Assembly (NCBI GenBank): GCA_040903745.1
Contig: JBBDUV010000063.1
Span: forward strand, 42,432 to 106,431
Direction of reading: 5' to 3'
Length of the DNA: 64,000 nt
DNA from: Bacteroidales bacterium
GTDB lineage: Bacteria; Bacteroidota; Bacteroidia; Bacteroidales; GCA-2748055
The translations under genes were made by a program, and so were the position numbers. This document shows, one piece after another, positions 37,330 through 62,233 of the stretch (its first letter is position 1; the number at the start of each line of letters is the position of its first letter). The notes below the pieces were generated by a model. The model did no database searches and was not told where the DNA came from. It worked only from the letters and a program-made list of their open reading frames with translations.

Positions 37330-37872
37330 TTATTCCGACAGTTTAGCATCCAGTTTTTCCCTGCAGTGAAGACAGAAATCTCCCTCTTTCTGGTCCAGAT
37401 CTTCTACGTATGTGCTTGAACGCATTACACATACCGGGTTGGTGCAGTGGATCAACCCGAATGTATGTCCAAGCTCATGAACCACCACCTTGGCAAGTCG
37501 TTCAAGCATCAGGTTATGGTCCTCCTTCAGACCGTACAATTCATTTCTCAGCCGGAAAAGCGAGGCGATCCCGCAATTACCATTCAACCGTGCCTGTCCG
37601 TAAATATAAGTAAGAATGGGTATGTAAAGATCGCCCCTGAAAAGGCTCATATACCTGAAGTAACCGGCAGGTGCCCGGGCATATGAAGCTGCCAGGAGTT
37701 CATCGGCATTGTATTGCCTTCGGGCAGGATTATAGAACTCCGACACATCTAAAGTACACTCTTTCAGGTCAACGTCCACATGAAAAACTGAAGCAACCTT
37801 TGTCATAATATGTTTGGTGGTACTTCGCTCGAATTTACCACAAGTAATAATTATGATTCTTTTTTTCTTCAA
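37330..37872 (-). CDS. Archaemetzincin-family (M54) zinc metalloprotease
   Basis: 'HELGHTFGLIHCTNPVCVM-X16-CLHC' matches the archaemetzincin signature HEXXHXXGX3CX4CXM...CXXC almost exactly. Confidence 0.75.
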   Translation of the reverse strand: MKKKRIIIITCGKFERSTTKHIMTKVASVFHVDVDLKECTLDVSEFYNPARRQYNADELLAASYARAPAGYFRYMSLFRGDLYIPILTYIYGQARLNGNCGIASLFRLRNELYGLKEDHNLMLERLAKVVVHELGHTFGLIHCTNPVCVMRSSTYVEDLDQKEGDFCLHCREKLDAKLSE

Positions 37873-37922: not shown

Positions 37923-39260
37923 TTAATGCTTCTTTAGTCCGAATTTTTTAATCTTGTTATACAGCGTTGCCCTGTCAACATTCAGCGCCTTTGCAGTACG
38001 TGAAATGTTCCAGTCATATTTCTTTAGGATCTTCTGAATATGGTTTAACTCCAGCTCATCCAGACTCTCCACCGAACTATTGATCATCTCCTTCCCCATC
38101 GGCAGATCCTTCAGTTTGATCTCTTTCCCGTTCCCTACAACGATGGCACGCTCTATCATGTTCTCCAGTTCTCTGACATTCCCGGGGAAGTCAAAATTCA
38201 TCATATGTTTCATGGCTGCCGGATCGATGGTCAATATATCCCTGCTCATTGATTTACAGTACTTTCCAATAAAATGATTCACCAGCAGGGGAATGTCCTC
38301 CTTGCGCTTGCGCAGTGGTGGGATCTTGATATTCAACACATTTAATCTGTAATACAGGTCTTCCCTGAAGGTGCCATTCTTAACCATCCCTCCCAGATCA
38401 CGGTTGGTCGCGCAGATCGTCCTGAAATCGGAGGAGATCTCCTTATTTCCTCCCACCCGCATAAATGACTTTGTCTCAAGCACACGCAACAATTCAACCT
38501 GCATCTTCGACGAGATCGTGGCGATCTCATCCAGGAAGATCGTTCCCCCGTCTGCCATCTCAAACCTGCCCTTTCTGGTAAAACTTGCGCCGGTAAAGGC
38601 CCCTCTCTCATGACCGAATAGTTCACTTTCTAGCAGACTTTCCGTGAGCGCACCGCAATGTACACTGACCAATGGAAAATACTTACGTGAAGAATTTGAA
38701 TGTATAGCTCTTGCTATCAGTTCTTTACCTGTGCCTGACTCGCCCGTAATGATCACCGAAGAGTTCGATTGTGCAATACTTTCGACATCCTTCAAAACCT
38801 TTTTCAGGGCATCGCTTTCGCCCACGATATCCTCGACATCCACCAGACTGGTAATGCTCTCCTTTAATGTTGTATTTTCAGCCTGGAGAGCTACCTGTTT
38901 CGCTGCATTCCGGATCAGGTGGGACAGATCATCCGGGTCGAATGGCTTGGTCACATAATCGAACGCACCGTTCTTCAGTGCCTGAACTGCAGTGTCCACA
39001 GAAGCGAATGCCGTCATGATAATAAAGATCGGCTCATTTGTAAGCGTCTTAATCCGTTTATGCAACTCCATTCCGTCCATACCGGGCATCTTGATATCGG
39101 CCAGGACAATATCATACTCCTTTTCTTCAAGCATATTGAGTGCCCTTTTTCCATCCTCGGCACAATCGACATCATAACCATCATCAATAAACCAGTTATA
39201 AAGGGAATCCCTTACCGATTCCTCATCATCAACAATTAAAATGGATACCAGTTCTGCCAT
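37923..39260 (-). CDS. Sigma-54-dependent response regulator (REC + AAA+ EBP + Fis-type HTH; NtrC family)
   Basis: Domains seen: REC ('ILIVDDE', 'DIVLADIKMPGMDG'), Walker A 'GESGTGKE', the 'GAFTGA' sigma-54 contact loop, and a C-terminal HTH ('ISRTAKALNVDRATLYNKIKK'). Confidence 0.9.
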   Translation of the reverse strand: MAELVSILIVDDEESVRDSLYNWFIDDGYDVDCAEDGKRALNMLEEKEYDIVLADIKMPGMDGMELHKRIKTLTNEPIFIIMTAFASVDTAVQALKNGAFDYVTKPFDPDDLSHLIRNAAKQVALQAENTTLKESITSLVDVEDIVGESDALKKVLKDVESIAQSNSSVIITGESGTGKELIARAIHSNSSRKYFPLVSVHCGALTESLLESELFGHERGAFTGASFTRKGRFEMADGGTIFLDEIATISSKMQVELLRVLETKSFMRVGGNKEISSDFRTICATNRDLGGMVKNGTFREDLYYRLNVLNIKIPPLRKRKEDIPLLVNHFIGKYCKSMSRDILTIDPAAMKHMMNFDFPGNVRELENMIERAIVVGNGKEIKLKDLPMGKEMINSSVESLDELELNHIQKILKKYDWNISRTAKALNVDRATLYNKIKKFGLKKH

Positions 39261-39265
39261 AATTT

Positions 39266-40942
39266 CTATTTGTTATTTTCTGCCAGAGGTAACACGATCG
39301 AAAAGGTGGTCCCTTTGCCAGGATGAGAATCAACTTTTATTTTTCCCTTGTGGTTTTCAACGATGCCATGTACAATGGCCAGTCCCAGGCCTATACCACT
39401 TGACTCCCTTTTAGTTGAATAGAATGGTTCAAAGATATGCGGTAGTTCCTGTTCCGATATCCCCGTGCCATTATCAATTATATCCAGCTTGAAATGGTTT
39501 TCATCCGGATTGGTGGTTCTGATGATGATCTCACCTTTTTCGCTGACTGCCTCCGAAGAGTTAACCAGCATAGCAACACAGGCTTGTTTTATCTGATTGG
39601 GGCTGCAACCTACCATGTCATTGTTTGCCCTGAAATCCATTTCGAATGCGATGTCGGCCATCTTGATTGTATGCAGCATCAGCCTGTATGTCTCATTTAA
39701 AATCCGGTGCAGGCTTGTAATCTCAAAATCATCCCTGTCTTTTTTTGAGAAATCCAACAACCCCTTCACAATATCGCCGCACCGCTTGGTCTCCGTTTCA
39801 ATAAGCTTCAGGTTTTTTAGGATTGAATCTTTCCTGGCATGGTAAAAATCCGAACTACTCAGCTGCTTGTGCACCAGCTTACAGTAGACGAGAATGCCCG
39901 ACAATGGATTATTAATCTCATGGGCCACCGATGAAGAGAGTTTACCGAGGGAAGCGATTCTCTCTACATGGATCAGTTCATTCTGGGCCTCTGAAAGCGC
40001 CTCTGATTTCTTCTGCACCTTATATTCCAGCTGCTGCGACCAGTTCTGAAGCTCTTCAGTTGCCCTGTCAATATTATCGAGCATATTATTGAATGCCTCG
40101 GAAACCAGCCGCATATCATCCAGAAGATGTGGTTCAAGCTTCAGCCTGATGCTGGTATCTCCACTGGAGACGGCCTCGCTGGCACTGACAATGGAGTTCA
40201 ATGGATCCTTTATCCGCTTGCGGGTGAAAACAACCAGAATACCAACCATGATTCCTGTTATTAAAAGTGCCAGCAGGAGGAAGTCGCGCGATGACCTGTC
40301 AATAAAGCTATCAAGATCACGCAATGGAAGATTGATGATCAGCGATCCCAGCACCTTTTCATCCTCATGGTGGGCATGGCAGGCGGCGGTATAACATGAA
40401 GGTTCATTTAGAATAGGCTTCCTTATTAGCAGGTGTCTTTCGCTGCTGCTTGCCTGGTATAACCCGCAACCAGGATGTTCGTCGAGAATGCGGTACTCCT
40501 TTTCCATGTAGGAGAACATGGAGGAGAGATCGGAGTGACAATCGTTGCAGTTGGGATTTCGCAAGTCGGCATATTCCGCTCCCAGGGAGGTATAGGCCAG
40601 CTGGTCATGCTCATCATACAGGTTTACCTCATTGATGCCCGACATTGTACCGATAATGTCCAGCTCACGCTGGAGCATCGCTTTGTCATTCTCCAGCATG
40701 GAGTAATAGAGTGCTCCCTCTGCAATGGAACTCACCTGGTCGCCGGTCTGACGGATCGTGGTATCAAACAGTTCCAGGTAGATGGTACGAAATACAACAT
40801 TGAAGAGTATAAAAAGAAGAAACAGTGATCCGGCAATGATGAACACCACCCTTCCATAAATCGATGACCTGAAACGGATATAGTTCCTTACCACCTTATT
40901 ATTTGTATTCCTCCTAAAAAATCCGACAAGGGGCCTTGTCAT
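39266..40942 (-). CDS. Sensor histidine kinase with a Cys/His-rich periplasmic domain (CXXCH + CX4CH), HAMP, HisKA and HATPase_c
   Basis: TM1 spans aa 31-52 and TM2 aa 221-240. The periplasmic motifs are 'CNDCH' (nt 40535-40549) and 'CYTAACH' (nt 40376-40396). The H-box is 'SVAHEINNPL', and the G-boxes are 'DNGTGI' and 'GIGLGL'. Confidence 0.85.
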   Translation of the reverse strand: MTRPLVGFFRRNTNNKVVRNYIRFRSSIYGRVVFIIAGSLFLLFILFNVVFRTIYLELFDTTIRQTGDQVSSIAEGALYYSMLENDKAMLQRELDIIGTMSGINEVNLYDEHDQLAYTSLGAEYADLRNPNCNDCHSDLSSMFSYMEKEYRILDEHPGCGLYQASSSERHLLIRKPILNEPSCYTAACHAHHEDEKVLGSLIINLPLRDLDSFIDRSSRDFLLLALLITGIMVGILVVFTRKRIKDPLNSIVSASEAVSSGDTSIRLKLEPHLLDDMRLVSEAFNNMLDNIDRATEELQNWSQQLEYKVQKKSEALSEAQNELIHVERIASLGKLSSSVAHEINNPLSGILVYCKLVHKQLSSSDFYHARKDSILKNLKLIETETKRCGDIVKGLLDFSKKDRDDFEITSLHRILNETYRLMLHTIKMADIAFEMDFRANNDMVGCSPNQIKQACVAMLVNSSEAVSEKGEIIIRTTNPDENHFKLDIIDNGTGISEQELPHIFEPFYSTKRESSGIGLGLAIVHGIVENHKGKIKVDSHPGKGTTFSIVLPLAENNK

Positions 40943-41084
40943 AGTATCTTGGTTTTTAATAAAATATCAATCTGCACATAAACCCGCCGGAATGTAGGCC
41001 AGGGAAACGTGTTGCCACTATTCCCCGGCATAATCAGTTGGACCGGGTGCTCTTTTGAACACCGGTTAAATTACGAAAAAACGG

Positions 41085-41795
41085 TCAATCTAAAAATTCC
41101 TTCTGAAATTTATTCCATACCTCTCCCGGCATCTCAGCCAGAGGGAAATCGGTCAGTTCTCCGCCCTCCTGCAACACAACATGCGATGATCCTTTGTTGA
41201 TTAGTTGCGCAGCTTCGGCCATAAAATCCTTGCAACGCACCAACTCCTCCTGTGACCAGACCACTGCCTCCTCATCCATTTTACAGTCACTGATCTCGGT
41301 TTTCCAGTTTTCCGGCTTCACCTTACAAATCCATCCCTTTCCATAGGGATCGCTGTTGATGAATCCCTCTTTTACCTGTACTTCAGAATTCAGCTTGCGG
41401 ATCTCTCCTGAAATGGGGGAGGCAATTTTTAACTTCCGGTCGCCGCTGGTAACAGTGGCGATGAGATCACCCTTGCTGACCCTTTCGCCTTCAGCCCGTA
41501 AAAAATCTACACTCACACCTCCTGTGATATGCAGCAGCAGGTCGTCCACTCCCACCCTGGCTGCTCCCGATTTCTCCAGGTAGGTCCAGGTATGATTGCG
41601 GTTATAGAACAGTCCTCTCGGAATACTTAAGAGGGCTGCTGAAAGGCCGTTCATCGATCTGACCAACTGTGTTTTTACACTCACCGGTCTGTTCAACAAG
41701 ATCCATGTTGGTATCAGGATCAAAAGAAATGCAATAATCACCAGATATTCAATACCCTTGGTTTCGAAAATATCCGTATACGTAAATGCTTCCAT
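41085..41795 (-). CDS. Membrane-anchored GcvH-like (lipoyl-fold) protein with a conserved C-terminal extension
   Basis: It has an N-terminal TM helix ('IEYLVIIAFLLILIPTWILL'). 'HTWTYLEKSGAARVGVDD...ASPISGEI...INSDPYGKGW' resembles glycine-cleavage H protein. It is a paralog of the C-terminal half of 44032-45759. Confidence 0.6.
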   Translation of the reverse strand: MEAFTYTDIFETKGIEYLVIIAFLLILIPTWILLNRPVSVKTQLVRSMNGLSAALLSIPRGLFYNRNHTWTYLEKSGAARVGVDDLLLHITGGVSVDFLRAEGERVSKGDLIATVTSGDRKLKIASPISGEIRKLNSEVQVKEGFINSDPYGKGWICKVKPENWKTEISDCKMDEEAVVWSQEELVRCKDFMAEAAQLINKGSSHVVLQEGGELTDFPLAEMPGEVWNKFQKEFLD

Positions 41796-41835
41796 AATTG
41801 TCTGTTAAAATTTAATTGTCTGTTAAAAAAATATT

Positions 41836-43065
41836 CTAATGGTCGTCATCCTTTGCCCATTCGGGAGGATCATTGTATACAGGCATGCGGTTCACAATCC
41901 ATCTGAAAACCCAAACCTCTGCAAATACAATGGTGAATGTAACCACTACCTCCATCCATGTTGGATAATAAGGAGTCGCGGAATCCCACCTGTAAGCAAT
42001 AATAGAAACGTTCAGCCGGTTAATCACAATTCCAACCATGGCCACAATAGCGGCCACCCTGGCCAGGGTGATGTTCACCTTCCTGTAGCTGACAAAGAAC
42101 AATACCATCGGGACCAGAACAAAGCCGATCATTTCGACCAGGTACCATAAACCCATGCGTGAATTCAGGTATTCCCAGTTTTTCCCATGTACAAAAACAA
42201 TGATGTGCATGAAGAAATAGACGAACATGGCAAAAGCACATATCTGTGAGAAGCTGTGGACAATCCCATTGTGGGCACGTTTATGTGTATCAGTAATTTT
42301 ATCGGCAAATACCTTTTTGCTGACAGATCCCTCGAAGATGACCATGGAAAGACCGGCAAATACACTGGATACAAGGAACAGAATAGGAATGAATTCATTG
42401 TACCACAGTGGATGAATCTTCTCCCTGGCCATAAGAAACAGGGCACCCAGACCCGACTGATGAAGTGTTGAGAGGGTGATTCCAAAGATCACTGCAGCGA
42501 TGGTCATCCCCGACAAGATCTTCCGTGCCCTTTTCGCCCCGAGCCATTCAGCGATCGCCGGTGAAAACTCGATCAGCTGTGCAACCATGTAAAGCAGGAA
42601 ATGCCAGGCGATCAAAAACAGGACGGAACTCGCTCCAAAACTGTTACCGATAATCGGGTTGATAATGCTTAACGGTCGACCCAGATCAAGCACCAGGGCC
42701 CCCGCATAGAACAGGTAGGCCAGGAAACCGTTAAGCACCGTTACACGAACGATGGATTTATACTTCTTAACGTTCAGTATATAGACGATGAACGTGAGTA
42801 CATAAGCGCCCCCGGCAAATGCGACACCGGTAACAACATTAAATCCTTTCCACAAACCCCAGGGAACCTCCTGGTCAATATTACTGACATACCCGAGTCC
42901 GTGAATAAACCTGAGGATAATGATAACAACGCCTGCCGTCATCACAGGTACGGAGATAATATTGAACCATGTAAAGGCTTTACCTCTGGGCTTTAGTTCG
43001 TCTGCCAGGAATTTCCAGATCGTTCTTCCGTTCCCGGGCTGTTCAATTGCTTCGATATTATTCAT
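41836..43065 (-). CDS. NrfD/HybB/PsrC-family polytopic membrane quinone-interacting subunit
   Basis: About 410 aa with about 10 TM helices ('VPWGLWKGFNVVTGVAFAGGAYVL'). It immediately follows the Tat-FeS subunit. The ATG at 43065 gives an 8-nt overlap with the FeS stop; the track's GTG at 43101 is an alternative. Confidence 0.8.
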   Translation of the reverse strand: MNNIEAIEQPGNGRTIWKFLADELKPRGKAFTWFNIISVPVMTAGVVIIILRFIHGLGYVSNIDQEVPWGLWKGFNVVTGVAFAGGAYVLTFIVYILNVKKYKSIVRVTVLNGFLAYLFYAGALVLDLGRPLSIINPIIGNSFGASSVLFLIAWHFLLYMVAQLIEFSPAIAEWLGAKRARKILSGMTIAAVIFGITLSTLHQSGLGALFLMAREKIHPLWYNEFIPILFLVSSVFAGLSMVIFEGSVSKKVFADKITDTHKRAHNGIVHSFSQICAFAMFVYFFMHIIVFVHGKNWEYLNSRMGLWYLVEMIGFVLVPMVLFFVSYRKVNITLARVAAIVAMVGIVINRLNVSIIAYRWDSATPYYPTWMEVVVTFTIVFAEVWVFRWIVNRMPVYNDPPEWAKDDDH

Positions 43066-43930
43066 TTTCGTTATCTTGTTTTGAATTATGTTTGGTTGCA
43101 CTATGAATTCCCAGGAGCACTGCAGGTGCCAGTACGAAAACAGAAGGCACGCTGTAGAGAAATCCCTTGGTTAATTCAGGATAAGGCTTTTTCTGGATCT
43201 TCGTATTGAATCCAAGCTCTTCAAAAGGCACTGCCGACAGGTAGAGCCAACCGGTTCCCCCTGCTTCATGCTCTCCATAGATCACATCGTGGTACATGCT
43301 GGGATAGTCGTTAATACGCTTACGCGCCTCTGCGATCAACTCACGCCGGTTGCCAAACTTAACAGCTTCTGCCGGACAGTTTTCCACGCAGGCGGGCAGC
43401 AGACCCTCTTTTACCCTGTCGTAGCACATATCACACTTCTGGATTTTCGGATTGGTACTGTGGTACTCAAACTTTGGAGCATCGAACGGACAGGAGATCA
43501 TACAGTACCTGCATCCCATGCTTTTGTCTTCACGCCATATAACTGATCCGTCCTTTTGCTTGTGCATGGCCCTGGTTAGACAAGCCGATACACATGCAGG
43601 TTGTGCGCACTGCATACACTGGGTTTTCACATAAAACTCACCTGCAGAAGTTTCGTATGCATTTACCACAGTACGACGTTTTTCATTCGCCATTCGCTTT
43701 AACCCCACTTCAGGTACATCTTCCAGATCCGGCCCTTCAAACCCATGTGCTTCTGCACATGCAATTTCACACCCCTGGCAACCTGCACACCATGTTGAAT
43801 CGAAAAGGATTCCATGAAACTCATTCTCCTCTTCAATAGGTTCAGCTGTTGCTCCCAGGGGCTTACCTGTTCCGAGTGCAACCCCCGTCAGGCCAAGCGC
43901 CTTTAAAAAATTTCTTCTGTCTACTCCCAT
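43058..43930 (-). CDS. Tat-exported 4x[4Fe-4S] ferredoxin-type subunit (HybA/NrfC/DmsB/PsrB family) with a C-terminal TM anchor
   Basis: The twin-arginine signal is 'VDRRNFLKALG'. Four Cys clusters are present: 'CAGCQGCEIAC', 'CMQCAQPACVSAC', 'CRYCMISCP' and 'CDMCYDRV...ACVENCP'. The hydrophobic tail is 'VPSVFVLAPAVLLGI'. Confidence 0.85.
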   Translation of the reverse strand: MGVDRRNFLKALGLTGVALGTGKPLGATAEPIEEENEFHGILFDSTWCAGCQGCEIACAEAHGFEGPDLEDVPEVGLKRMANEKRRTVVNAYETSAGEFYVKTQCMQCAQPACVSACLTRAMHKQKDGSVIWREDKSMGCRYCMISCPFDAPKFEYHSTNPKIQKCDMCYDRVKEGLLPACVENCPAEAVKFGNRRELIAEARKRINDYPSMYHDVIYGEHEAGGTGWLYLSAVPFEELGFNTKIQKKPYPELTKGFLYSVPSVFVLAPAVLLGIHSATKHNSKQDNENE

Positions 43931-43951
43931 TTTGATTGATTTTATTCTTTA

Positions 43952-44023
43952 GATAATTCACTTGGATAATTCACTTGGATAATTCACTGGATAATTCACT
44001 TGGATAATTCACTTGGATAATTT
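43952..44023. repeat. 13-bp tandem repeat GATAATTCACTTG x5.5, filling the intercistronic gap
   Basis: Copies lie at 43952, 43965, 43978 (12 nt, one T missing), 43990 and 44003, with a partial copy at 44016. The array lies between the stop at 44032 and the start at 43930 of two co-directional minus-strand genes. Confidence 0.9.
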
Positions 44024-44031
44024 ATTTTCGC

Positions 44032-45759
44032 TTAATTTTTGAGGAAACCTGACTGAAAATCTTCCCAGACCTCCGGTCCGAAATTCTTCAGAACCCCTTC
44101 CTGTACTTCACCACCGTCCTGCAGAACTACAGCATGTTCTGATTTAGGTTGTAAAACTTCGGCGAGAAAATCCTTTAGCCTGATAAACTCATACCTGATC
44201 CAATCCCTGTACTTTTGTCCGGTCATATAGGCAGTAAACTCCTCCCTCCAGTTTGTGGGCTCTACCAGATACACCCAACCTTTAGCAAATGGTTCGGTAT
44301 TGATCAGTGATGCGTTTGTCAACAGTTTACCATTTTGCTCCCTGACAATACCGGTAACAGGAGATTTTACCTCGAGTCGTTTCCCGTTTTGTATAATCGC
44401 AAAGACAGTTTCTCCCTTTTTCACCTTTTCTCCCGGACTTTTCATATCCACTTTGGTAATGGCACCTGTTATCTTTTGAAGAAAACAGTCAAGCCCGACC
44501 CTGATCCTGCCATCCTTCTCCATAAAGGTCCAGGTATGTGAACGGTCGAAGAAATATCCCCCGGGAACCTCTGAGGATTCGGCAACAAACGTTGTAGATT
44601 TCACCATGCTTCCCTGCTCTGGTAAAGGCTCCCTGCTGTTAAAAACACGTAGAACAAGGTATACAATGATTGCTCCTGCAAGAAGAGCCAGTATGACAAG
44701 CAGTAGCGGTGAGGCTAAATTCGGAGCAATATCAGGCTCACTGGCAGTAACCGGCGCAGCATCCAGGTTAGCAAGGATCACATCTCTTTCGCGCTCCATC
44801 AGTGGCGCATAACCATTGGCAGCAATCAGCTCCTGTCCCCTGCCCAACATCCAGCTAACCAGTTCCATTCCGGTTGCGGTTCCAGTTCCGGTTGCGGTTC
44901 CGGTTCCGGTTGCGGTTGCGGTTCCAGTTCCGGTTGCGGCTGATGCTTCAAGAGAGGTAACCGCAAAGATTCTGCTATAAAGTGTACCCGAATATTTACC
45001 GATCCAGACACCCCTGGCAAGTTCATCTACGCTTCCATAGATCTCTTCAAAGTGGTCCACCTTCCCGTTGTTATTCAAATCGACCGGAATCATAAGCACA
45101 CCGGGGGAAGATTTGGTGCGCTCCATCTCCAACAACTGGGTAAGCGTACAGAATCCAACCGCATTCAATTCACTTTTTACCTTGTCAACAACATCTTCAC
45201 AACTGCCCAGTATGGTACCTTGGATGGATGCTTCACCGGAATTTGTAAAATCTGACAGATAAGAATTAAAGGATGGGTCAGAAATCCGGTAAGCTGTTAC
45301 CGGTACATTACTGTTGTTGTGCAATACAGATCCCCATGTTGTAGATTCTCCAGGTGCATAAAGCGATGCAAACTCAACAGGAGAAATTCCCTGTTTCATG
45401 ATCTCATCCCGGTACCTGTTTCCGGGATTCATCACCGGAACATACACCTCTCTGCCAATCACACTGACCTTTGTTGTCCGCGGATCAACACCTTTCATGT
45501 AACTTTTGGTAAGAAATGCAATATGACCCGGCTTTCCGATCCATTCTCCCAGTTCAGCCTCATAAGCCTCAACCGATACGATCATGCCTTCGTTCTCCAA
45601 CATAAAGGCATCAGCACACTCTTTTACAACAGGGAAAAGATCAGGACTGCACCTGACCTGTATAGCCTCCGAAGAAGACCCCTCCGGTAACATGGCCCCA
45701 GCAAAAGCTTCTCCTGCAAACAGAGCCAATGAACAAATAAGAACTGCTAAATTTTTCAT
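44032..45759 (-). CDS. Signal peptide + periplasmic PBP-like (PstS-type) domain + TM helix + cytoplasmic GcvH-like domain fusion protein
   Basis: The start is taken at 'MKNLAVLICSLALFAGEAFA'. The periplasmic part resembles phosphate-binding-protein-like folds ('IAFLTKSY','VGFCTL','GYAPL'). A Thr-Gly/Thr-Ala low-complexity insert follows, then the TM helix 'LLLVILALLAGAIIVYLVL'. The C-terminal part is 'HTWTFMEKDGRIRVGLD...KSPVTGIV...INTEPFAKGW'. Confidence 0.6.
   Translation of the reverse strand: MKNLAVLICSLALFAGEAFAGAMLPEGSSSEAIQVRCSPDLFPVVKECADAFMLENEGMIVSVEAYEAELGEWIGKPGHIAFLTKSYMKGVDPRTTKVSVIGREVYVPVMNPGNRYRDEIMKQGISPVEFASLYAPGESTTWGSVLHNNSNVPVTAYRISDPSFNSYLSDFTNSGEASIQGTILGSCEDVVDKVKSELNAVGFCTLTQLLEMERTKSSPGVLMIPVDLNNNGKVDHFEEIYGSVDELARGVWIGKYSGTLYSRIFAVTSLEASAATGTGTATATGTGTATGTGTATGMELVSWMLGRGQELIAANGYAPLMERERDVILANLDAAPVTASEPDIAPNLASPLLLVILALLAGAIIVYLVLRVFNSREPLPEQGSMVKSTTFVAESSEVPGGYFFDRSHTWTFMEKDGRIRVGLDCFLQKITGAITKVDMKSPGEKVKKGETVFAIIQNGKRLEVKSPVTGIVREQNGKLLTNASLINTEPFAKGWVYLVEPTNWREEFTAYMTGQKYRDWIRYEFIRLKDFLAEVLQPKSEHAVVLQDGGEVQEGVLKNFGPEVWEDFQSGFLKN
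44869..44940. repeat. In-frame GGTTCC/GGTTGC microsatellite encoding a (T-G/T-A)n linker
   Basis: The plus strand reads CCGGTTGCGGTTCCAGTT-like 18-nt units, about 4 copies. They translate on the minus strand to 'ATGTGTATATGTGTATGTGTATG'. Confidence 0.8.
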
Positions 45760-45809
45760 ATTCCAGATTTTTAAAATCGTTCCGTAATTCATCATGACCT
45801 CAATATTTG

Positions 45810-45825
45810 CAATGCCAATTACAAA
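45810..45825 (-). promoter_or_regulatory. Weak candidate sigma-54 promoter (TGGCAT-N5-TTGTA)
   Basis: The minus strand reads TGGCATcatgtTTGTA, 51 nt upstream of the ATG at 45759. The spacing is correct and the -24 GG is present, but the -12 element is GT rather than the consensus GC. Confidence 0.25.
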
Positions 45826-45902
45826 CATGATGCCAGATGATATTAAAGTTCTGATTTACTGGTTTTTACGCTATAACGCAATGTCTATCAACAGGAGGGC
45901 AA

Positions 45903-45921
45903 GTGTTGTATTTTTCAACAC
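45903..45921. promoter_or_regulatory. Palindrome GTGTTG-N7-CAACAC (candidate enhancer/UAS)
   Basis: It lies about 95 nt upstream of the candidate sigma-54 promoter. Its half-sites recur at 45973-45983 and 46001-46009, separated by a 17-nt insert. Confidence 0.3.
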
Positions 45922-46102
45922 TCGAAAAATATATTTGTTGTTATTATCTGTTTTTCAATATGTTATATTGCATGTTGTATTTTACTACAGGTGATGTATA
46001 TTTCAACACCCAGCATTGTATAATATTGATTAGATGATATTTGTATGTTTATAATTTATATATATTGTCGAAAATAGCTTTCGAGTTGAGCTATTGTAAT
46101 CT

Positions 46103-46747
46103 TTAATCTCCCCCATATCCGAGGTCATAGATCTCACGAATCTCCTTTAATTTCTCTTCAAAATCAATTTTCAGGTCGACCAGTTCCCCGGAGTTCAGAT
46201 CGAAAACCCAGCCATGAACCACCGGATAACCATGCCCAAGGAAAGTCCTCTGGACAACGGCTGTTTTGATAATATTGATGCATTGCTCCTCGACGTTTAA
46301 CTCCACGAGACGGTCATATTTTCGTTGCTCATCGGTAATGGAGTTTAATTCCTTTCTGTGCAGGCGATACACATCCCTGATACTTCGCAGCCAGGGGTTG
46401 AGGATTCCCTGGTCCTGCGGTTCCATAGCTGCTTTCACACCACCACAACGGTAATGGCCACAAACCACAATATGTTTTACCTTCAACTGTTTTACAGCAT
46501 AGTTAATCACCGACATCACATTTAAGTCTGTATTTTGCACCATGTTGGCAATATTGCGGTGGACAAACACATCGCCCGGCTCGGCACCCATCATCTCCTC
46601 AGCGGAGACCCGGCTATCACTGCAGCCGATATACAAGAAATCCGGATTCTGATCCTTCGCCAGTTTCTCAAAAAAATGGTTGTCAGCAGCCTTTTTTTCT
46701 GCCACCCACCTTTTGTTGTTCTCAAATATCTTTTCGTATTCGGTCAT
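46103..46747 (-). CDS. can: Beta-class carbonic anhydrase
   Basis: 214 aa with 'CSDSRV' and 'HYRCGG' zinc-ligand motifs. Confidence 0.85.
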   Translation of the reverse strand: MTEYEKIFENNKRWVAEKKAADNHFFEKLAKDQNPDFLYIGCSDSRVSAEEMMGAEPGDVFVHRNIANMVQNTDLNVMSVINYAVKQLKVKHIVVCGHYRCGGVKAAMEPQDQGILNPWLRSIRDVYRLHRKELNSITDEQRKYDRLVELNVEEQCINIIKTAVVQRTFLGHGYPVVHGWVFDLNSGELVDLKIDFEEKLKEIREIYDLGYGGD

Positions 46748-47237: not shown

Positions 47238-50200
47238 ATGAAAAAGGTCATCCACATCCTCACCATCACCCTCGCCCTGCTCCTGATCCTGCTTATCACC
47301 CTCCCCTTCCTTTTCAAATCGAAAATCGAGGGTCTCGTGAAACAGGAGATCAACAAACAGGTCGAAGCCACAGTCAACTGGTCGAAATTCAGCCTCACCT
47401 TCTTCCGCGGCTTCCCCGACCTCAGCGTGAACCTGCACGAACTATCTGTTGTTGGAAAAGAGACCTTCGAAGGCGACACCCTCCTCTCCCTCAACCGGTT
47501 CGAGCTCAGGGTGAGCCCCTTCACCGCCCTCAAAAAGAAGATCATCGTAAAATCGATCCTCCTCAACCAACCGCTGATCAACGCCATCGTTCTGGCCGAC
47601 GGATCGGCCAATTACGATATCGTGCCTCCGGCGGAGGAAGAAGATGTTTTAGCTGAACGCCCGGTGGCGCAGCAGTCGCCCGAAAGCCAGGCAGCAGCGG
47701 CGGCTGACAAGGCAGCGAAAAAGGCTGATGAGGCGTCAGATCAAGCTGATGAGGCAGCAGGTCAGGCTGGTGCCACAGCCGGTAGTTCCATGGGCATCTC
47801 CCTGAAGTTGTTTGCCATAAAAAATGGCAAAATACTTTACGACGACCACTCATCCAACATCGCAGCCTCCGTTGGTAACTTCAACCTGGAGGTGCGGGGC
47901 GATTTATCCATGGAGCAGACCGACATCGACCTTGAGATGGCGGTGCACGATATAACCGCCTACTCTGATGGTATACGGTACATGAGAAACGGAAAACTCG
48001 GGATGGAGATGACCGCTGCAGCGGATATGGTCAACAGCATCTACACCCTGAAAAAGAATGAGATCAGGATCAACGGACTGGTTCTTGGCGCTGAAGGGAC
48101 AGTGGCCATGCCGGCCGACGGATCGATCCTGCCCGATATCAGGTTCTTCACCCGGGAGACCTCCTTCCGGACGCTGCTATCTATGGTACCGGCCATCTAC
48201 CTGTCAGATTTCGAAAGCCTGGAAACCTCCGGCTCCCTCGCCCTTGAAGGGACTGTCAAAGGTATGATGAAGGACTCCATCCTGCCCGATGTAACACTGA
48301 ACCTGTCGGTAAAAGACGGCTTCTTCTCCTATCCCGACCTGCCGAAGGATGTATCGGATGTGCAGATCGCCCTGCAGGTGAACTACTTCGGCTCAGATAT
48401 GGACGCCACTACCGTTAGCCTCGACCGGTTCCACCTTCTCCTGGGAGGCAACCCGTTTAACATCGACATGCAGGTTGCCACCCCCTTCAGCGATATGCAT
48501 GTGGCGGGGATGGTGAAAGGGATGATCGATTTTGCCACCCTGAAGGATGTCGTACCCATGAAAGATCTCAACCTGTCGGGCCGGCTCAATGCTGACCTGC
48601 AATGGGATACGCGGATGTCGTACATCGAGAAGGAGCAGTATGAGCAGGTGGATCTCGACGGACGGCTAACGATCGAAGAAGTGATGGTCGAGGCGCCCGA
48701 ACTCCCTGTCCCGGTGCAGTTGAAGAAGATGTCGATGATCTTCACCCCCCGGTTTGTGAACCTGGAGACGATCGATCTGCTGCTGGGGGCGTCCGACCTG
48801 CATATGGACGGACGGTTAACCAACTTTGTACCCTATGTGTTTGAGGGGAAAACAGTGGCAGGAACATTGAATGTGTCTTCAAGTATGCTGGATGCCAATG
48901 AATTTCTGGAAGAGGAAGCCGCAAATAATGGAACGGATCAACCTGACGGTGCCCTGACTGATCCGGGGACCGGTGCCGGTGAACCACCCTCTGAAGAGCG
49001 TTCCCCCGGTACAGAAATGGCTTCAGCAGAAAGTGGGAACGGTGGGGCTGCAGAAGATGAAGAATTATTGGTACCAGCCGACTCCCTCGCGGTGCCACCG
49101 GCGATGAAAATACCGGAAAACATCAATTTTGATATGACCCTCAACCTGAAGAAATTGTTGTACGATAACATCGTGGTGGAGAATATGTCAGGAAAGGTGG
49201 CGGTGAAGGATGGGGTTGCCCACCTGGCTGGACTCGAAATGAATGTGCTGAAGGGGAAGGTGTCGGTTGATGGTGAAGTAGACACCCGGGAGGAATTTAC
49301 CCGGGCCGATGTGAAGATGAACCTGACCGGCATCGATATTCCCACTTCGTATGAGACATTCATGACCATCAAAACGCTCGCACCTGTAGCGCAATACTGC
49401 CAGGGGACCGCCAATGTGGTGATGGACCTCACAACACTCCTGGATGCATCGATGAACCCGCTGTATGAGTCGATCGATGCCAATGGTCACCTCTATACCC
49501 GCAACCTGAAGGTGGAGCAGCCGGCATCGCTCGAAAAACTCAGTAGCATGCTGAAAAATGAGAAGCTGAAAAACCTGGAGCTCGACAGGGCCGATATCAG
49601 ATTTGCCATCCGCGACGGTCGGGTGATCGTGGAGCCGTTCGACATGAACTTCGAGAATTCGAAGATCGTTGCATCCGGATCGCATGGGATCGACCAGACG
49701 ATGGACTACCTGCTGGATATGAATATCGCTAAAAGTGATATGGGCGGTGCCGCCAATGAGATGATGAACAGTGTGACCGCCCTGGCAGCCGGGGCAGGAT
49801 TTTCCGTACCACAGTCTGACTATATCAAGGTGAGGGCCAATATCACCGGTACCTTTAAGGATCCCCGGGTAAGCACCGATTTGAGGGGGAACCTGACCGG
49901 CGGAGAGGGAACAGTGAGGGAGGTTGTGAAGGAGGCTGTGAAGGAGAAGGTTACCCAAGAGGTCGAGCGGGTGAAGGATGAAGTGAAACAGGAGGTGCAG
50001 GAGGAGGCGACCGCAAGGGCTGCTGAGTTGATCGAAAATGCAGAGGCTGAGAAGGCCCGGCTGGCGGGGGAGGCCCGGCAGGCGGGCGACAAGCTGGTGG
50101 CAGAAGCCGAAAAGAAGGGTGAACAGCTGATCAGGGAGGCCGGAAACAACCCGCTCAAACAGATCGCGGCGAAGAAGGCGGCCGAAGAGCTGGTGAAGCA

Positions 50201-50294
50201 GGCAGAGAGGCAGTCGGCCAGGCTCATCAAAGAGGCTGAAACCAAAGGCGATGCAATCGTTGAGAGGGCCAGGGAGGAGGCAGCAAGACTTTGA
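47238..50294 (+). CDS. AsmA-family outer-membrane biogenesis / lipid-transport-like protein
   Basis: 1018 aa with an N-terminal TM anchor and an AsmA-like N-terminus ('VNWSKFSLTFFRGFPDLSV...LNQPLINAIVLADGSANYDIV'). The middle is a long beta-rich body. The tail is a coiled-coil with repeated 'EAExKG' segments. Confidence 0.8.
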   Translation: MKKVIHILTITLALLLILLITLPFLFKSKIEGLVKQEINKQVEATVNWSKFSLTFFRGFPDLSVNLHELSVVGKETFEGDTLLSLNRFELRVSPFTALKKKIIVKSILLNQPLINAIVLADGSANYDIVPPAEEEDVLAERPVAQQSPESQAAAAADKAAKKADEASDQADEAAGQAGATAGSSMGISLKLFAIKNGKILYDDHSSNIAASVGNFNLEVRGDLSMEQTDIDLEMAVHDITAYSDGIRYMRNGKLGMEMTAAADMVNSIYTLKKNEIRINGLVLGAEGTVAMPADGSILPDIRFFTRETSFRTLLSMVPAIYLSDFESLETSGSLALEGTVKGMMKDSILPDVTLNLSVKDGFFSYPDLPKDVSDVQIALQVNYFGSDMDATTVSLDRFHLLLGGNPFNIDMQVATPFSDMHVAGMVKGMIDFATLKDVVPMKDLNLSGRLNADLQWDTRMSYIEKEQYEQVDLDGRLTIEEVMVEAPELPVPVQLKKMSMIFTPRFVNLETIDLLLGASDLHMDGRLTNFVPYVFEGKTVAGTLNVSSSMLDANEFLEEEAANNGTDQPDGALTDPGTGAGEPPSEERSPGTEMASAESGNGGAAEDEELLVPADSLAVPPAMKIPENINFDMTLNLKKLLYDNIVVENMSGKVAVKDGVAHLAGLEMNVLKGKVSVDGEVDTREEFTRADVKMNLTGIDIPTSYETFMTIKTLAPVAQYCQGTANVVMDLTTLLDASMNPLYESIDANGHLYTRNLKVEQPASLEKLSSMLKNEKLKNLELDRADIRFAIRDGRVIVEPFDMNFENSKIVASGSHGIDQTMDYLLDMNIAKSDMGGAANEMMNSVTALAAGAGFSVPQSDYIKVRANITGTFKDPRVSTDLRGNLTGGEGTVREVVKEAVKEKVTQEVERVKDEVKQEVQEEATARAAELIENAEAEKARLAGEARQAGDKLVAEAEKKGEQLIREAGNNPLKQIAAKKAAEELVKQAERQSARLIKEAETKGDAIVERAREEAARL

Positions 50295-59827: not shown

Positions 59828-60440
59828 ATTTAATTGGATTTTGGCGAAGTATTTTTCCAGGATTACCAACTACTACATCATAATCTTTAACATCTCTAAG
59901 AATAACCGAACCAGCACCAATGATAGCCCATTTTCCAATTTTAACTCCAGGCAATATCGTAGCTCCTGTGCCTACATGAGTACCCTCACCGATATGAACA
60001 CCTCCTGTTATTGATGCATTTGGTGAAACATGAACAAAATCAAATATTTTACTATCGTGATCGATTACACATGCAGTATTAATAATACAATGACGACCTA
60101 TCTCAACATCGACATTAATTGTAACATTTGCCATAACTACAGTTCCTTCAAGCAATTCTGAATGGGGAGTTATAACTGCTGTTGGATGTATCAATGCTTC
60201 ATGATAATTTAGCATTTTTTTTTCATAAACCTTTTTCCTTGTGTAATTATCACCTATTGAAATAATCCACTTATCATCAGCTAATTCTGAAGGAATATAC
60301 TTTGATGGCAAATACACTGGATAACCTGATAATTCATTAATCTCACCATTATCATCAATAATACCTTCTATTTCAATACTAAGTTGAGATGCAATATCAA
60401 TGATAACTTTTGCATGACCACTTGCTCCATATAAATTCAT
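59820..60440 (-). CDS. NeuD/PglD-family sugar N-acetyltransferase (hexapeptide)
   Basis: 206 aa with a 'GASGHAKVI' Rossmann-like N-terminus and a left-handed beta-helix C-terminus. Confidence 0.8.
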   Translation of the reverse strand: MNLYGASGHAKVIIDIASQLSIEIEGIIDDNGEINELSGYPVYLPSKYIPSELADDKWIISIGDNYTRKKVYEKKMLNYHEALIHPTAVITPHSELLEGTVVMANVTINVDVEIGRHCIINTACVIDHDSKIFDFVHVSPNASITGGVHIGEGTHVGTGATILPGVKIGKWAIIGAGSVILRDVKDYDVVVGNPGKILRQNPIKYD

Positions 60441-60442
60441 TC

Positions 60443-61048
60443 CTAATTATTTCCTTTAAAGCGTTCCATTGTTGAATAACCTTTCTGATTTATGCCTTCT
60501 CGTTTAAAAACATGTAATATTGTCAATATAAATATTTTAAAATCCAGAGCAAAACTTACATTGTCAATATACCAAACATCGAGTGAAAACCTCTTTTTCC
60601 AATTTAATTCATTTCTTCCATTCACCTGTGCCCATCCAGTTATTCCTGGACGTAAGAGCAACCTTCTTTTTTGAAATTCATTATATAGAGAAAGATATTC
60701 CGGAAGTAAAGGTCTAGGGCCAATCATTGACATATCTCCTTTTAAGACATTAAATAACTGGGGCAACTCGTCCAATGAATTCTTTCTTAATATACCTCCC
60801 AATATGGTCATTCTTTTATCATCGGGCAACAAATTACCATTCTCATCAGTAAGGTCAGCCATAGTTTTAAACTTTAGTAATTCAAAGATCAATCCGTCTC
60901 TCCCGGTTCTTTGCTGAACGAAAAACACAACCCCATTATTAAAAAAAAGCTGAGCTATTATAATAAACAGAAAAACCGGAATAAATAATACGATCAGAAA
61001 AAAGGCCGAAAAAATATCAATTACTCTTTTTATTATTAACTTGTACAC
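60443..61048 (-). CDS. Small phosphoglycosyl (sugar-1-phosphate) transferase, PglC/WbaP C-terminal type
   Basis: 201 aa with 'KRVIDIFSAF', 'DELPQLFNVLKGDMSMIGPRP' and 'PGITGWAQV'. Confidence 0.85.
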   Translation of the reverse strand: MYKLIIKRVIDIFSAFFLIVLFIPVFLFIIIAQLFFNNGVVFFVQQRTGRDGLIFELLKFKTMADLTDENGNLLPDDKRMTILGGILRKNSLDELPQLFNVLKGDMSMIGPRPLLPEYLSLYNEFQKRRLLLRPGITGWAQVNGRNELNWKKRFSLDVWYIDNVSFALDFKIFILTILHVFKREGINQKGYSTMERFKGNN

Positions 61049-62225
61049 GCTCTACAATTTTTGCAACTTCTATTGTGAGATGAGATTTATCAAAACTATT
61101 TATAGCCACTTGACGTGCTTTCTGATTGCTTTTTAAATCATTCAAATAGTTCTTAACCGAATCATCCGAAAATATATTTTTAACTTGTTCAATGTTATCC
61201 TGATTAATATAAAAACCCAATTTTTCCTTCTCAATAATGTCATATTTCCATCCTTTATAATTCATAATTACAGGTTTATTTCCAACTGAAAGATAATCAA
61301 AAAACTTGTTTGCTGAATTCGTTTCAAATAATTTGTAATCGGGATCAACTAACATTAAAAAAACATCTGCGTCATTTAAAAATTGATTTAAATCTGTTTT
61401 GGGTACACCATCATGAACTCTAATATTTCTATGTTGCAAGCTCAATTGAATTAATTCTTCTTTCTCCTTTCCTTCTCCAATAAAAACAAAAAATATTTCA
61501 GGCAATTCTAATGCAACTTTACGGGTAAACTTCAGCAAACCATTGACCATCCCCATAGCTCCTGTATGGATAGCAACTAAACTATTTTTGGGAATATTCA
61601 GTTTCCGATGTAGAATATACTTTTTATCGGTTGGAAAAAATGTCTCTAAATCGCACATATTTGGTATCACAGATAACTTTTTTGAATCAATCCCTTTACT
61701 AATTATTGAATTCTTCATCCCGGGCGATAAAGCAATAATATGATATGATTTTCGATAGATACTTTTTTCAAAAGAATATAGTAATTTTACGAATAATGGA
61801 TTTTTAATGATCCCAATGGTAACAGGGATATCAGGCCACAAATCCCTCACTTCAAAAATATAGGGTGTCTTTTTTAATATTTTAAGAAAAATAGCAGGTA
61901 TACCAACTGTTAGCGGAGTTGAAGTAGCATAAACTACATTAATATTTTTTATCCTTAATGCATAGCGAATAGTTTTTAAAACAAAACTTATAAATGAAAT
62001 AATGCGATAAAAGTTAGAAAGTGTATTATCATAAAAATTTCGGATGTAAACAACCTTGATACCATTAATAATTTCCGTCTCCACTGATGATTCCTGATAA
62101 TTTCTACTTGTTAAAACAATCACTTCATGATTTCTATTCGCAAGCTGTTGAGAAATCCAATAAGATCTGGTTCCACCTCCCTCTGCAGGAGTTTTAAAAT
62201 ACTGATGTATATATAAAATTTTCAA
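61017..62225 (-). CDS. Glycosyltransferase family 4
   Basis: 402 aa with an 'MKILYIHQYF..GGGTR' N-terminus (WbuB-like) and GT-B architecture. Confidence 0.75.
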   Translation of the reverse strand: MKILYIHQYFKTPAEGGGTRSYWISQQLANRNHEVIVLTSRNYQESSVETEIINGIKVVYIRNFYDNTLSNFYRIISFISFVLKTIRYALRIKNINVVYATSTPLTVGIPAIFLKILKKTPYIFEVRDLWPDIPVTIGIIKNPLFVKLLYSFEKSIYRKSYHIIALSPGMKNSIISKGIDSKKLSVIPNMCDLETFFPTDKKYILHRKLNIPKNSLVAIHTGAMGMVNGLLKFTRKVALELPEIFFVFIGEGKEKEELIQLSLQHRNIRVHDGVPKTDLNQFLNDADVFLMLVDPDYKLFETNSANKFFDYLSVGNKPVIMNYKGWKYDIIEKEKLGFYINQDNIEQVKNIFSDDSVKNYLNDLKSNQKARQVAINSFDKSHLTIEVAKIVERVQVNNKKSN

Positions 62226-62233
62226 TGTCGTTT

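Follow-up and report, generated by a model that had tools for sequence, protein, structure and literature searches.

A gene set conserved across phyla in a Bacteroidales genome links a haem-sensor two-component system with a candidate Hmc-like FeS/NrfD module and H-protein-like proteins

Iron-sulfur (FeS) and NrfD subunits form membrane pairs whose catalytic partners normally share their operon. FeS subunits of the Hmc/Nhc/Hyb branch face c-type cytochromes or a hydrogenase small subunit, and in DsrJ-DsrO-DsrP a transmembrane-anchored periplasmic c-haem protein is combined with an FeS protein exported by the twin-arginine translocation (Tat) pathway and an NrfD subunit. The placing of a quinone oxidoreductase under a haem kinase and a sigma-54 activator has one characterised precedent, in Geobacter, where the two-component protein GSU0599 carries two CX2-4CH motifs (PMC8396549; PMC3831638). 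The sigma-54 regulator BccR (GSU0598) is needed for GSU0597-0593, a sigma-54-dependent operon that encodes two hypothetical proteins, a receiver protein, the seven-haem CbcA and the dihaem-b CbcB; this operon is expressed only after a drop in acceptor potential and is required below -0.21 V (bioRxiv 10.1101/2021.04.15.440034). Mentions of haem sensors with two motifs are limited to GSU0591, GSU0599 and a pair of proteins from Anaeromyxobacter (PMC3831638; PMC8396549), and a paper on six Geobacter genomes does not mention the GSU0591-0599 locus. Here we analyze a block of minus-strand genes, numbered (i) to (vii), in a 64-kb stretch of a Bacteroidales bacterium (assembly GCA_040903745.1, contig JBBDUV010000063.1), which served as the reference sequence and is called the window below. 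The block encodes two membrane proteins with domains resembling the glycine cleavage H-protein GcvH (H-like; (i) and (iv)), an FeS/NrfD pair (ii and iii), a haem-motif histidine kinase (v), an NtrC-type sigma-54 activator (vi) and an archaemetzincin (vii). We propose, with a probability of roughly 0.45, that a haem-sensing two-component system here drives an auxiliary Hmc-like menaquinone module with H-like accessory subunits, for which the nearest working analogue would be Geobacter BccR/GSU0599 switching on CbcBA at low redox potential.

The genes of the block recur as a set. Protein (iv) has 1353 relatives at an E value of 1e-5 or better, and the best 120 of these 1353, at 49-91% identity, come chiefly from Bacteroidales and other Bacteroidota metagenome-assembled genomes (MAGs). 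We compared gene contexts, 10 kb on each side, and ran tblastn over 92 related loci. The order (i)-(ii)-(iii)-(iv)-(v)-(vi)-archaemetzincin is kept in Bacteroidales, Prolixibacteraceae (Draconibacterium), Salinivirgaceae and Lentimicrobiaceae, and is identical in one Chlorobiota MAG, in which the first H-like gene lacks the binding-protein domain; the seven families also occur together, with permuted order or orientation, in Thermodesulfobacteriota ("Deltaproteobacteria"), Acidobacteriota, Gemmatimonadota and Chitinophagales. Altogether the set is present in dozens of loci from several phyla, mostly of uncultured bacteria. Membership that is kept while order shuffles across phyla is strong evidence for functional linkage, and by this measure the block, in which GcvH-like, FeS, NrfD and kinase genes co-occur across phyla, qualifies as a conserved functional unit. 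An all-versus-all comparison of the remaining neighbor open reading frames (ORFs) found no extra family common to more than five of 55 clusters, and no conserved catalytic gene family lies within 5 kb across these 55 clusters, which make up the first locus set. A truncated Psr/Ttr/Hyb operon is ruled out, given that the set is intact across phyla in neighborhoods without a common catalytic family.

The block can be divided into a structural operon, with the H-like, FeS and NrfD genes, and a regulatory cassette, with kinase, activator and archaemetzincin, because each of the two exists on its own. In Tangfeifania and Mariniphaga, genes (i)-(iv) occur alone, with the kinase not nearby, and carry the same sigma-54 element as the window, which therefore points to a separable regulated unit. 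The kinase, activator and archaemetzincin genes, for their part, stand as a unit apart on the opposite strand at several loci from Deltaproteobacteria and Acidobacteriota.

Upstream of (i), three palindromes precede a sigma-54-type -24/-12 element (Table 1). The 19-bp motif GTGTTGAA-N3-TTCAACAC is present in two to three copies at equivalent distances in nearly all Bacteroidota and Chlorobiota loci checked, and palindromes are paired in tandem, 19 bp apart, in several orthologous loci (L002, L009, L014, L017, L021 and L033, for example). Allowing up to two mismatches, the motif has five matches in the 64-kb window, only two of them in this promoter region, and the copies upstream of (i) are the only ones that lie inside a promoter region at all. 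Within 400 nt around the first structural gene, -24/-12 elements were found in 36 of 78 loci, against an expectation of 0.04 per locus. The layout has the form of a classical enhancer-dependent sigma-54 promoter with (vi) as its sole linked activator, and the identification of (vi) as an NtrC-type protein, made earlier in a reading of the DNA without database searches (hereafter the sequence-only reading), was upheld, with REC, AAA+ and HTH_8 all present (PF00072, PF00158 at 1e-68, PF02954; GAFTGA at residue 220).

The structural core is the FeS/NrfD pair. Protein (ii) has an RRNFLK Tat signal, a Fer4_11 match, four cubane-type Cys motifs and a C-terminal transmembrane helix (residues 257-275), and (iii) is a cofactor-less member of the NrfD family with ten hydrophobic helices. 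Their best NCBIfam matches are HmcB (306.1 bits vs. a cut-off of 420) and HmcC (388.3 vs. 550), followed by HybA (225.3 vs. 263) and HybB (227.8 vs. 450); because these score best, in this order and all under their cut-offs, we assign the pair to the Hmc/Nhc/Hyb branch on profile similarity. NrfC (93.8 vs. 377.6), TtrB (86.5 vs. 416), DmsB (121 vs. 214) and DsrO (107 vs. 200) fall well short, and the QrcC/D cut-offs were missed too. The block has no gene for a molybdopterin, hydrogenase or multihaem partner, and neither do 42 of the 50 loci that share its architecture. The partnerless state noted in the sequence-only reading thus applies to the loci of the window's type, but not to their sisters: a small TmcA/c7-like (c3/c7-type) multihaem cytochrome adjoins FeS/NrfD, or is at most 3 kb away from the cluster, in 19 of the 39 loci without the full activator and archaemetzincin pair, compared with 8 of the 50 loci of the window's type. 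Since about half of the sister clusters have an adjoining multihaem cytochrome, the pair is best interpreted, from these comparisons, as an Hmc/Nhc-like cytochrome-facing module whose cytochrome has been lost or unlinked.

The regulatory cassette has wider connections. A second scan, anchored on the sensor domain, gave more than 564 matches in species-representative genomes from many phyla, and of 78 new sensor-anchored loci, 36 carried H-like genes, 33-36 FeS/NrfD genes, 28 the sigma-54 activator and 14 the archaemetzincin. In several Thermodesulfobacteriota (L101, L043, L098), archaemetzincin, GcvH-like, kinase and activator genes stand beside a 13-haem c and a cytochrome b561/PhsC-like gene. 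An independent scan anchored on that cytochrome b yielded 80 loci, from Rhodoferax, Burkholderiales, and Gamma- and Alphaproteobacteria, in which a two-motif kinase (34/80) or a sigma-54 activator (37/80) immediately adjoins a 9-haem c and cytochrome b. With two-motif kinases and sigma-54 activators flanking multihaem-c/cytochrome-b genes in 34-37 of 80 loci, the kinase/activator pair cannot be called unprecedented, and the layout is like that of Geobacter GSU0599/BccR-CbcBA. One Geobacteraceae MAG has both kinds of oxidoreductase in a row, in the order receiver-GcvH-like, 5-haem c, FeS, NrfD, kinase, 9-haem c and cytochrome b. Judging by architecture and a shared sensor profile, (v) and (vi) may be orthologous to GSU0599 and GSU0598.

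Under the reading that we prefer, the periplasmic single-Cache domain of kinase (v), with two predicted covalent c-haem sites, would by homology report redox potential or a haem ligand. The kinase would phosphorylate (vi), which would bind the three palindromes, whose sites are conserved, and fire the sigma-54 promoter upstream of (i). As their homology suggests, (ii) and (iii) would make up a complex like HmcBC/NhcBC, carrying electrons between menaquinone and periplasmic c-type haem partners; the cytochrome gene is absent in this lineage, and an unlinked cytochrome or the haems of the kinase itself would take the partner's place. From their architecture, (iv) and (i) may be membrane-tethered cytoplasmic adaptor or regulatory subunits, (iv) presumably docking to NrfD via its conserved N-terminal transmembrane segment and (i) perhaps adding an extra ligand or Ca2+ input through a periplasmic binding-protein domain with an EF-hand loop. 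More speculatively, the archaemetzincin may have a regulatory task, with the activator or the H-like proteins as its substrates for processing or turnover. The whole would act as a sigma-54-controlled module by which the flow of electrons between quinone pool and periplasm is tuned.

Several observations weigh against this proposal. The window holds no gene for a periplasmic electron partner, and 47 of 128 sampled kinases of the family have no FeS/NrfD pair within the stretch of DNA sampled around them. The -12 part of the promoter element in Bacteroidota is TTGAA, TTGTA or TTGGA and not the canonical TTGC; in Chlorobiota it is likewise non-TTGC and in other phyla canonical (window 45820-45835; upstream regions of L002-L051), which may reflect a phylum-specific promoter consensus. 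The cluster's own activator is the presumed binder of the palindromes on account of linkage, and the roles suggested for the H-like proteins and the archaemetzincin derive from domain architecture and gene order. In addition, (ii) had been described as a four-cluster ferredoxin, and although its Tat signal, four motifs and C-terminal anchor stand, it has 15 and not 16 cluster Cys: the first ligand of the third motif, Cys in 83 of 83 relatives, is Ser137 (codon AGC, 43520..43522, minus strand), one base from TGC. The substitution could be a real cluster change, giving a 3Fe-4S or Ser-ligated cluster, for instance, or a base error; this copy of (ii) could be impaired by the missing ligand, or the base call could be wrong.

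A doubtful alternative starts from the circuit suggested in the sequence-only reading, from quinone pool through FeS to sensor haem: the FeS/NrfD pair would be a conduit whose sole task is to poise the kinase's two c-haems against the menaquinone pool, the two-component system would signal the redox state of that pool, and its regulon would be located elsewhere. Among the 42 of 50 same-architecture loci without a partner gene, the kinase offers the sole periplasmic haem candidate, and FeS proteins of the HmcB type usually face c-type haems. A sister architecture, type B, also favors a conduit: it combines FeS, NrfD and kinase with two or three receiver-GcvH-like fusions, and the sigma-54 activator and archaemetzincin are absent (for example L172 5859-13893; also L136, L142, L145, L154, L158, L162, L165 and L200). 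Type-B clusters have a 5- to 13-haem cytochrome, FeS, NrfD and a dihaem-sensor kinase, some of the fusions with an N-terminal transmembrane segment, and no DNA-binding regulator; therefore the redox complex there cannot be the kinase's transcriptional target. Against a conduit, conserved sigma-54 promoter and enhancer sites lie immediately upstream of the structural genes, (i)-(iv) lack a nearby kinase in Tangfeifania and Mariniphaga, half of the sister clusters have a cytochrome partner of their own, and the same kinase family occurs without FeS/NrfD beside cytochrome bc pairs, which are the regulated effector in Geobacter. The BccR-CbcBA analogy and the conserved promoter and enhancer sites are the reasons why we favor the FeS/NrfD pair as a regulated effector over a wire of the sensor. 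A more far-reaching version, which we hold just as tentatively as the conduit, has the FeS/NrfD pair giving up its cytochrome to wire the menaquinone pool to the kinase haems, with the H-like domain as an unrecognised two-component transducer or output that couples the redox complex to kinase, activator and archaemetzincin.

It is unlikely that (ii) and (iii) are an ordinary anchor pair for a catalytic subunit encoded elsewhere (hydrogenase, molybdoenzyme or multihaem reductase) and governed by a generic regulator. The similarities to HybA/HybB and to proteins of the DmsB/NrfC type would fit such a pair, and the survey reached 10 kb to either side of the related clusters and, for the block itself, the 64 kb of the window. 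Yet no conserved catalytic family lies within 5 kb in the 55 clusters, no respiratory catalytic subunit is encoded in the examined parts of the window, and no hydrogenase structural or maturation genes are linked to the block or conserved near related loci. The cut-offs for HybA/B, NrfC, TtrB, DmsB and QrcC/D were all missed, the catalytic partners of such pairs are usually found in the same operon, and an unlinked subunit would leave the linkage of H-like, haem-kinase and archaemetzincin genes unexplained.

The sensor itself bears on a further possibility. Its CXXCH and CX4CH motifs, both in insertions between strands, are invariant in cross-phylum alignments and occur together in 125 of 128 kinases of the family, and the domain that holds them is, as previously stated, the sole periplasmic haem candidate encoded in the block. 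An AlphaFold2 model (predicted local distance difference test score 83) has a single Cache/PAS fold, and Foldseek gives the extracellular Cache domain of WalK and the haem-c sensor of GSU0935 (3b42) as its best structural matches. PF21563, the family built on Geobacter sensors of this kind, was detected in 9 of 13 sensor relatives (best E 8.4e-7), the window's own sequence falling below Pfam significance. A search of a protein database with the sensor-domain profile returned gene fragments only, many from frameshifted long-read assemblies, because such assemblies split these genes by frameshifts; two loci from long-read metagenome assemblies (L093, L094) have cluster genes split by many frameshifts.

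Sigma-54 activators often control responses to nitric oxide (NO), NorR being an example. The present sensor could bind NO, and the operon could protect or re-route periplasmic electron transfer under nitrosative stress; in its Cache fold with a CXXCH insertion the domain resembles one-haem sCache_haem domains, which were described as NO-binding sensors in a 2026 preprint (PMC12889525). We consider this quite improbable, as NO-detoxifying genes are absent in and near the block and genes for quinone oxidoreductases are closely linked to the kinase family. A CX4CH motif such as the second one here is, moreover, usual for haems that transfer electrons at low potential, cytochrome c3 being an example.

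Both H-like proteins, (i) and (iv), match GCV_H in Pfam at E values of about 1e-20 (residues 427-543 of (i), E 9.5e-21), and a model of (iv) matches the E. coli H-protein (3ab9) in Foldseek at E 7e-11 with a target-normalised TM-score of 0.90. The column of the lipoyl lysine (SVKA hairpin) is not conserved among 157 distinct domains; it holds Asp in (iv) and Gly in most relatives, followed by Lys or Arg, and the GcvH cut-offs in NCBIfam were missed (72 vs. 117). HxW, SPxSG and DPYxxGW motifs are conserved, and the 157 distinct relatives also keep an extension at the C terminus, about 70 residues long, in which QDGG and W..F...FL motifs are conserved. A profile search of 1.84 billion representative proteins returned 410 clusters (50% identity) at E 1e-30 or better. 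The "lipoyl-fold" proteins of the sequence-only reading therefore keep their fold and their two membrane-anchored copies but not a carrier function, which was rejected for (i) and (iv) on the missing lipoyl lysine. The positive-inside charge pattern and, for (i), the signal peptide suggest that the domains are cytoplasmic.

What varies is the N-terminal partner. The domain follows a receiver in 50 cases, 31 of them also with a transmembrane segment; a transmembrane helix preceded by a TKGIEY peptide, as in (iv), in 47; another transmembrane segment in 42; a binding-protein domain and transmembrane segment, as in (i) and in Bacteroidota loci only, in 32; and a Cys-rich segment in 14, one of which is a HoxU/NuoG-like 2Fe-2S/4Fe-4S module beside a NuoF-like gene. 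At this last locus (L129 6715-9738), a NuoF-like flavoprotein gene is followed by the HoxU/NuoG-like FeS module fused to the GcvH-like domain; the two genes adjoin kinase, activator and archaemetzincin genes, and NrfD is absent from the locus. A constant domain with variable, input-like partners that include receivers has the signature of a transducer or adaptor and not of a cofactor carrier. The TKGIEY subtype is found in an NrfD-containing locus in 48 of 49 cases, with an immediately adjoining NrfD gene in 41 of 49, and proteins of the (iv) type are therefore probably subunits of the NrfD complex. That (i) and (iv) should be true lipoyl swinging-arm carriers, in the style of LbpA/sHdr or glycine cleavage and within a lipoate-dependent redox or sulfur pathway, is highly improbable, since the H-protein fold and GCV_H matches that favor it are set against the replaced lysine with its often Arg neighbor, the missed GcvH cut-offs, the receiver fusions of sister systems, and a lack of linked lipoate ligase, LipA/B, Hdr or DsrE genes.

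Protein (i) also has a periplasmic domain that had been called PstS-like. This holds at the level of fold and is undetectable in the single protein: the window's own (i) has no Pfam match here, whereas a profile of 15 orthologues matches PstS structures in the Protein Data Bank (E 1.3e-6 to 1e-4) and PF12849 (PBP_like_2) is found in 11 of the 15, the domain occurring solely in the sampled Bacteroidota loci. The phosphate-binding GS(T/S)(T/S) loop is not conserved, VGSTSV of 4h1x aligning to SSPDL with an acidic residue, and a phosphate-binding role is ruled out by this replacement. Of the EF-hand-type loop in the domain, D206, N210, D214 and E217 (alignment numbering) are invariant or nearly so, and two orthologues have a weak EF-hand match in Pfam. 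In gene (i), a tandem repeat (44859-44939; period 6/18, plus-strand consensus TTCCGG) gives rise to a run of 23 Ala, Thr and Gly residues, ATGTGTATATGTGTATGTGTATG. No aligned orthologue has this run, which is inserted in frame as a low-complexity stretch separating the binding-protein domain from the transmembrane segment.

The archaemetzincin gene was overlooked in the sequence-only reading, whose six genes are real but are followed, 50 nt downstream of (vi), by this seventh co-directional member. It passes the NF033823 cut-off (160.9 bits vs. 145), and its gene adjoins that of the sigma-54 activator in 51 of 60 cases. HExxHxxGxxH is present in 58 of 60 relatives, and the motifs overall are kept in 57-58 of 60. 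No paper linking archaemetzincin with kinases was found in the literature searched. At two loci (L131 12215-12997 and L140 13510-14280) tatC directly follows the kinase, archaemetzincin and activator genes, a linkage worth noting because the FeS subunit (ii) is a Tat substrate; at L166 (3706-4491) a multi-transmembrane gene of similar size, whose family was not checked, occupies the equivalent position.

The coordinates of the block are collected in Table 1. The six ORFs of the sequence-only reading were confirmed as listed, all in one direction and separated from (i) to (vi) by 101 nt, an overlap, 40, 142 and 5 nt, which agrees with its description of tight spacing; an overlap of 8 nt between (ii) and (iii) presupposes the ATG start of (iii), upstream of which its ORF extends to a GTG. 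The listed ORF of (i) has 598 codons for amino acids, and the start is most likely M24, where the signal peptide begins and with which orthologues agree. Hidden Markov model searches of Pfam and NCBIfam recovered GCV_H, Fer4_11, NrfD, HAMP-HisKA-HATPase and REC/sigma-54 AAA+/HTH_8, in line with the domains that had been read from the letters.

Table 1. Positions of genes and sequence features of the block in the window (aa, amino acids; TM, transmembrane).
Feature	Position	Strand	Description
Palindrome 1, enhancer-like	45991..46009	-	GTGTTGAAATATACATCAC; putative sigma-54 activator site
Palindrome 2, degenerate	45972..45990	-	CTGTAGTAAAATACAACAT; abuts palindrome 1
Palindrome 3, perfect	45903..45921	-	GTGTTGAAAAATACAACAC; enhancer-like
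Sigma-54-type -24/-12 element	45820..45835	-	TGGCATCATGTTTGTA; 61-76 nt upstream of likely (i) start
Gene (i)	44032..45759 (listed ORF to 45828)	-	Signal peptide, PstS-like periplasmic domain with EF-hand loop, TM, predicted cytoplasmic GcvH-like domain and C-terminal extension
EF-hand-type loop of (i)	45046..45081	-	DLNNNGKVDHFE; inside PstS-like periplasmic domain, pattern DxNxNGxxDxxE
GcvH-like domain and C-terminal extension of (i)	44035..44571	-	GCV_H match; extension motifs conserved
Gene (ii)	43058..43930	-	290 aa; Tat-exported, C-tail-anchored polyferredoxin, HmcB/HybA-like, 15 cluster Cys
Gene (iii)	41836..43065 (GTG alternative start 43101)	-	NrfD-family membrane subunit, HmcC/HybB-like
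Gene (iv)	41085..41795	-	236 aa; conserved N-terminal peptide F.Y.DIF.TKGIEYL, TM helix, predicted cytoplasmic GcvH-like domain and extension
Gene (v)	39266..40942	-	Histidine kinase: TM, single-Cache sensor, TM, HAMP, HisKA, HATPase
CNDCH (CXXCH) of (v), residues 132-136	40535..40549	-	Haem-c motif, periplasmic sensor
CYTAACH (CX4CH) of (v), residues 183-189	40376..40396	-	Second haem-c motif, sensor
Gene (vi)	37923..39260	-	NtrC-type sigma-54 activator: REC, AAA+ with GAFTGA, HTH_8
Gene (vii)	37330..37872	-	Archaemetzincin, HELGHTFGLIH and Cys4 site; conserved seventh block member

An Rfam scan of the whole window gave zero matches, including no structured RNA or riboswitch in the leader, and scans for terminators and sigma-70 promoters returned nothing exceeding background. 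Next to the block on its upstream side is a beta-carbonic anhydrase gene (46103-46747), with an AsmA-family gene (47238-50294) beyond it on the other strand; both families also occur near the cluster at one related locus (L001) in a different arrangement, a case of partial synteny. The parts examined of the rest of the window hold housekeeping genes (IF-2, NusA, LpxC-FabZ, Suf, AmtB/GlnK) and capsule genes. Beyond the polysaccharide synthesis and export genes, G+C content falls to 0.29-0.31 at 60001-64000, compared with about 0.45 elsewhere, and these last 4 kb may be a horizontally acquired part of the capsule locus.

Each part of the block belongs to a known superfamily. No description of the seven-gene set, or of H-like proteins combined with FeS/NrfD, was found in the literature searched, and the combination is not listed in an NrfD review, in agreement with the earlier statement that it matches no described complex. 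Likewise not found described there were an Hmc-like FeS/NrfD pair kept in many genomes without a cytochrome or catalytic subunit, and a non-lipoylated H-like domain serving as a modular partner of receivers, anchors and binding proteins with a linked archaemetzincin; nor was any paper found on a receiver-GcvH-like response-regulator output. NrfD/FeS pairs are usually seen as anchors of catalytic subunits, and a widespread partnerless version would be a new kind of anaerobic-respiration module, placed under its own haem-sensing sigma-54 circuit and decorated with H-protein-like domains. Its carriers are abundant, poorly studied bacteria of sediments and digesters (Bacteroidales, Ignavibacteria, Desulfobacterota, Acidobacteriota, Zixibacteria, KSB1), and the sensing of electron-acceptor redox potential becomes testable in several phyla. 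The receiver-fused H-like domain, in turn, appears to be an undescribed output or adaptor domain of response regulators, a new use of the H-protein fold.

Compared with known systems, the sensor shares with GSU0582, GSU0935 and the sCache_haem domains a single Cache/PAS fold with a CXXCH insertion; unlike these, kinase (v) has a second invariant motif, CX4CH, in a further insertion, and its output is a histidine kinase with a sigma-54 activator and not a chemoreceptor. The H-like domains have the fold of GcvH, GcvH-L (match to 5a35) and LbpA and keep the HxW, SPxSG and DPYxxGW motifs, but they lack the conserved lipoyl Lys, add the extension of about 70 residues, and are tethered to the membrane or fused to receiver, Cys-rich, FeS or binding-protein domains. 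The FeS/NrfD pair resembles HybA/HybB of E. coli hydrogenase 2 in its two-subunit membrane anchor architecture and differs in its missed cut-offs and in having no linked hydrogenase structural or maturation genes at the block. In DsrMKJOP, the DsrJ-DsrO-DsrP arrangement matches what a wire from quinone to sensor would need; here, however, the haem protein is the sensor domain of a kinase, and DsrM and DsrK homologues are absent. Closer still is the likeness to Desulfovibrio Hmc/Nhc, in which a Tat polyferredoxin with a C-terminal anchor is joined to a cofactor-less NrfD subunit, and to which the c3/TmcA-like cytochromes next to the pair in sister clusters also correspond. The block differs in lacking HmcA/NhcA, HmcD, HmcE and HmcF, in its sub-equivalog scores, and in its Bacteroidales host without a sulfate-respiration context.

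The comparison with GSU0599/BccR-CbcBA was made by architecture. The effector here is an HmcBC-like FeS/NrfD pair and not a cytochrome bc, there is no cytochrome c gene, and the block adds H-protein-like proteins and an archaemetzincin. Common to both are a kinase with two c-haem motifs adjoining a sigma-54 regulator, and an operon for a quinone oxidoreductase that has a sigma-54 promoter; in Geobacter this operon encodes small accessory proteins and a receiver protein along with the inner-membrane quinone oxidoreductase. Taken together, these likenesses place BccR-CbcBA, the sole characterised relative, inside a much larger family of cassettes that pair a haem kinase with a quinone oxidoreductase.

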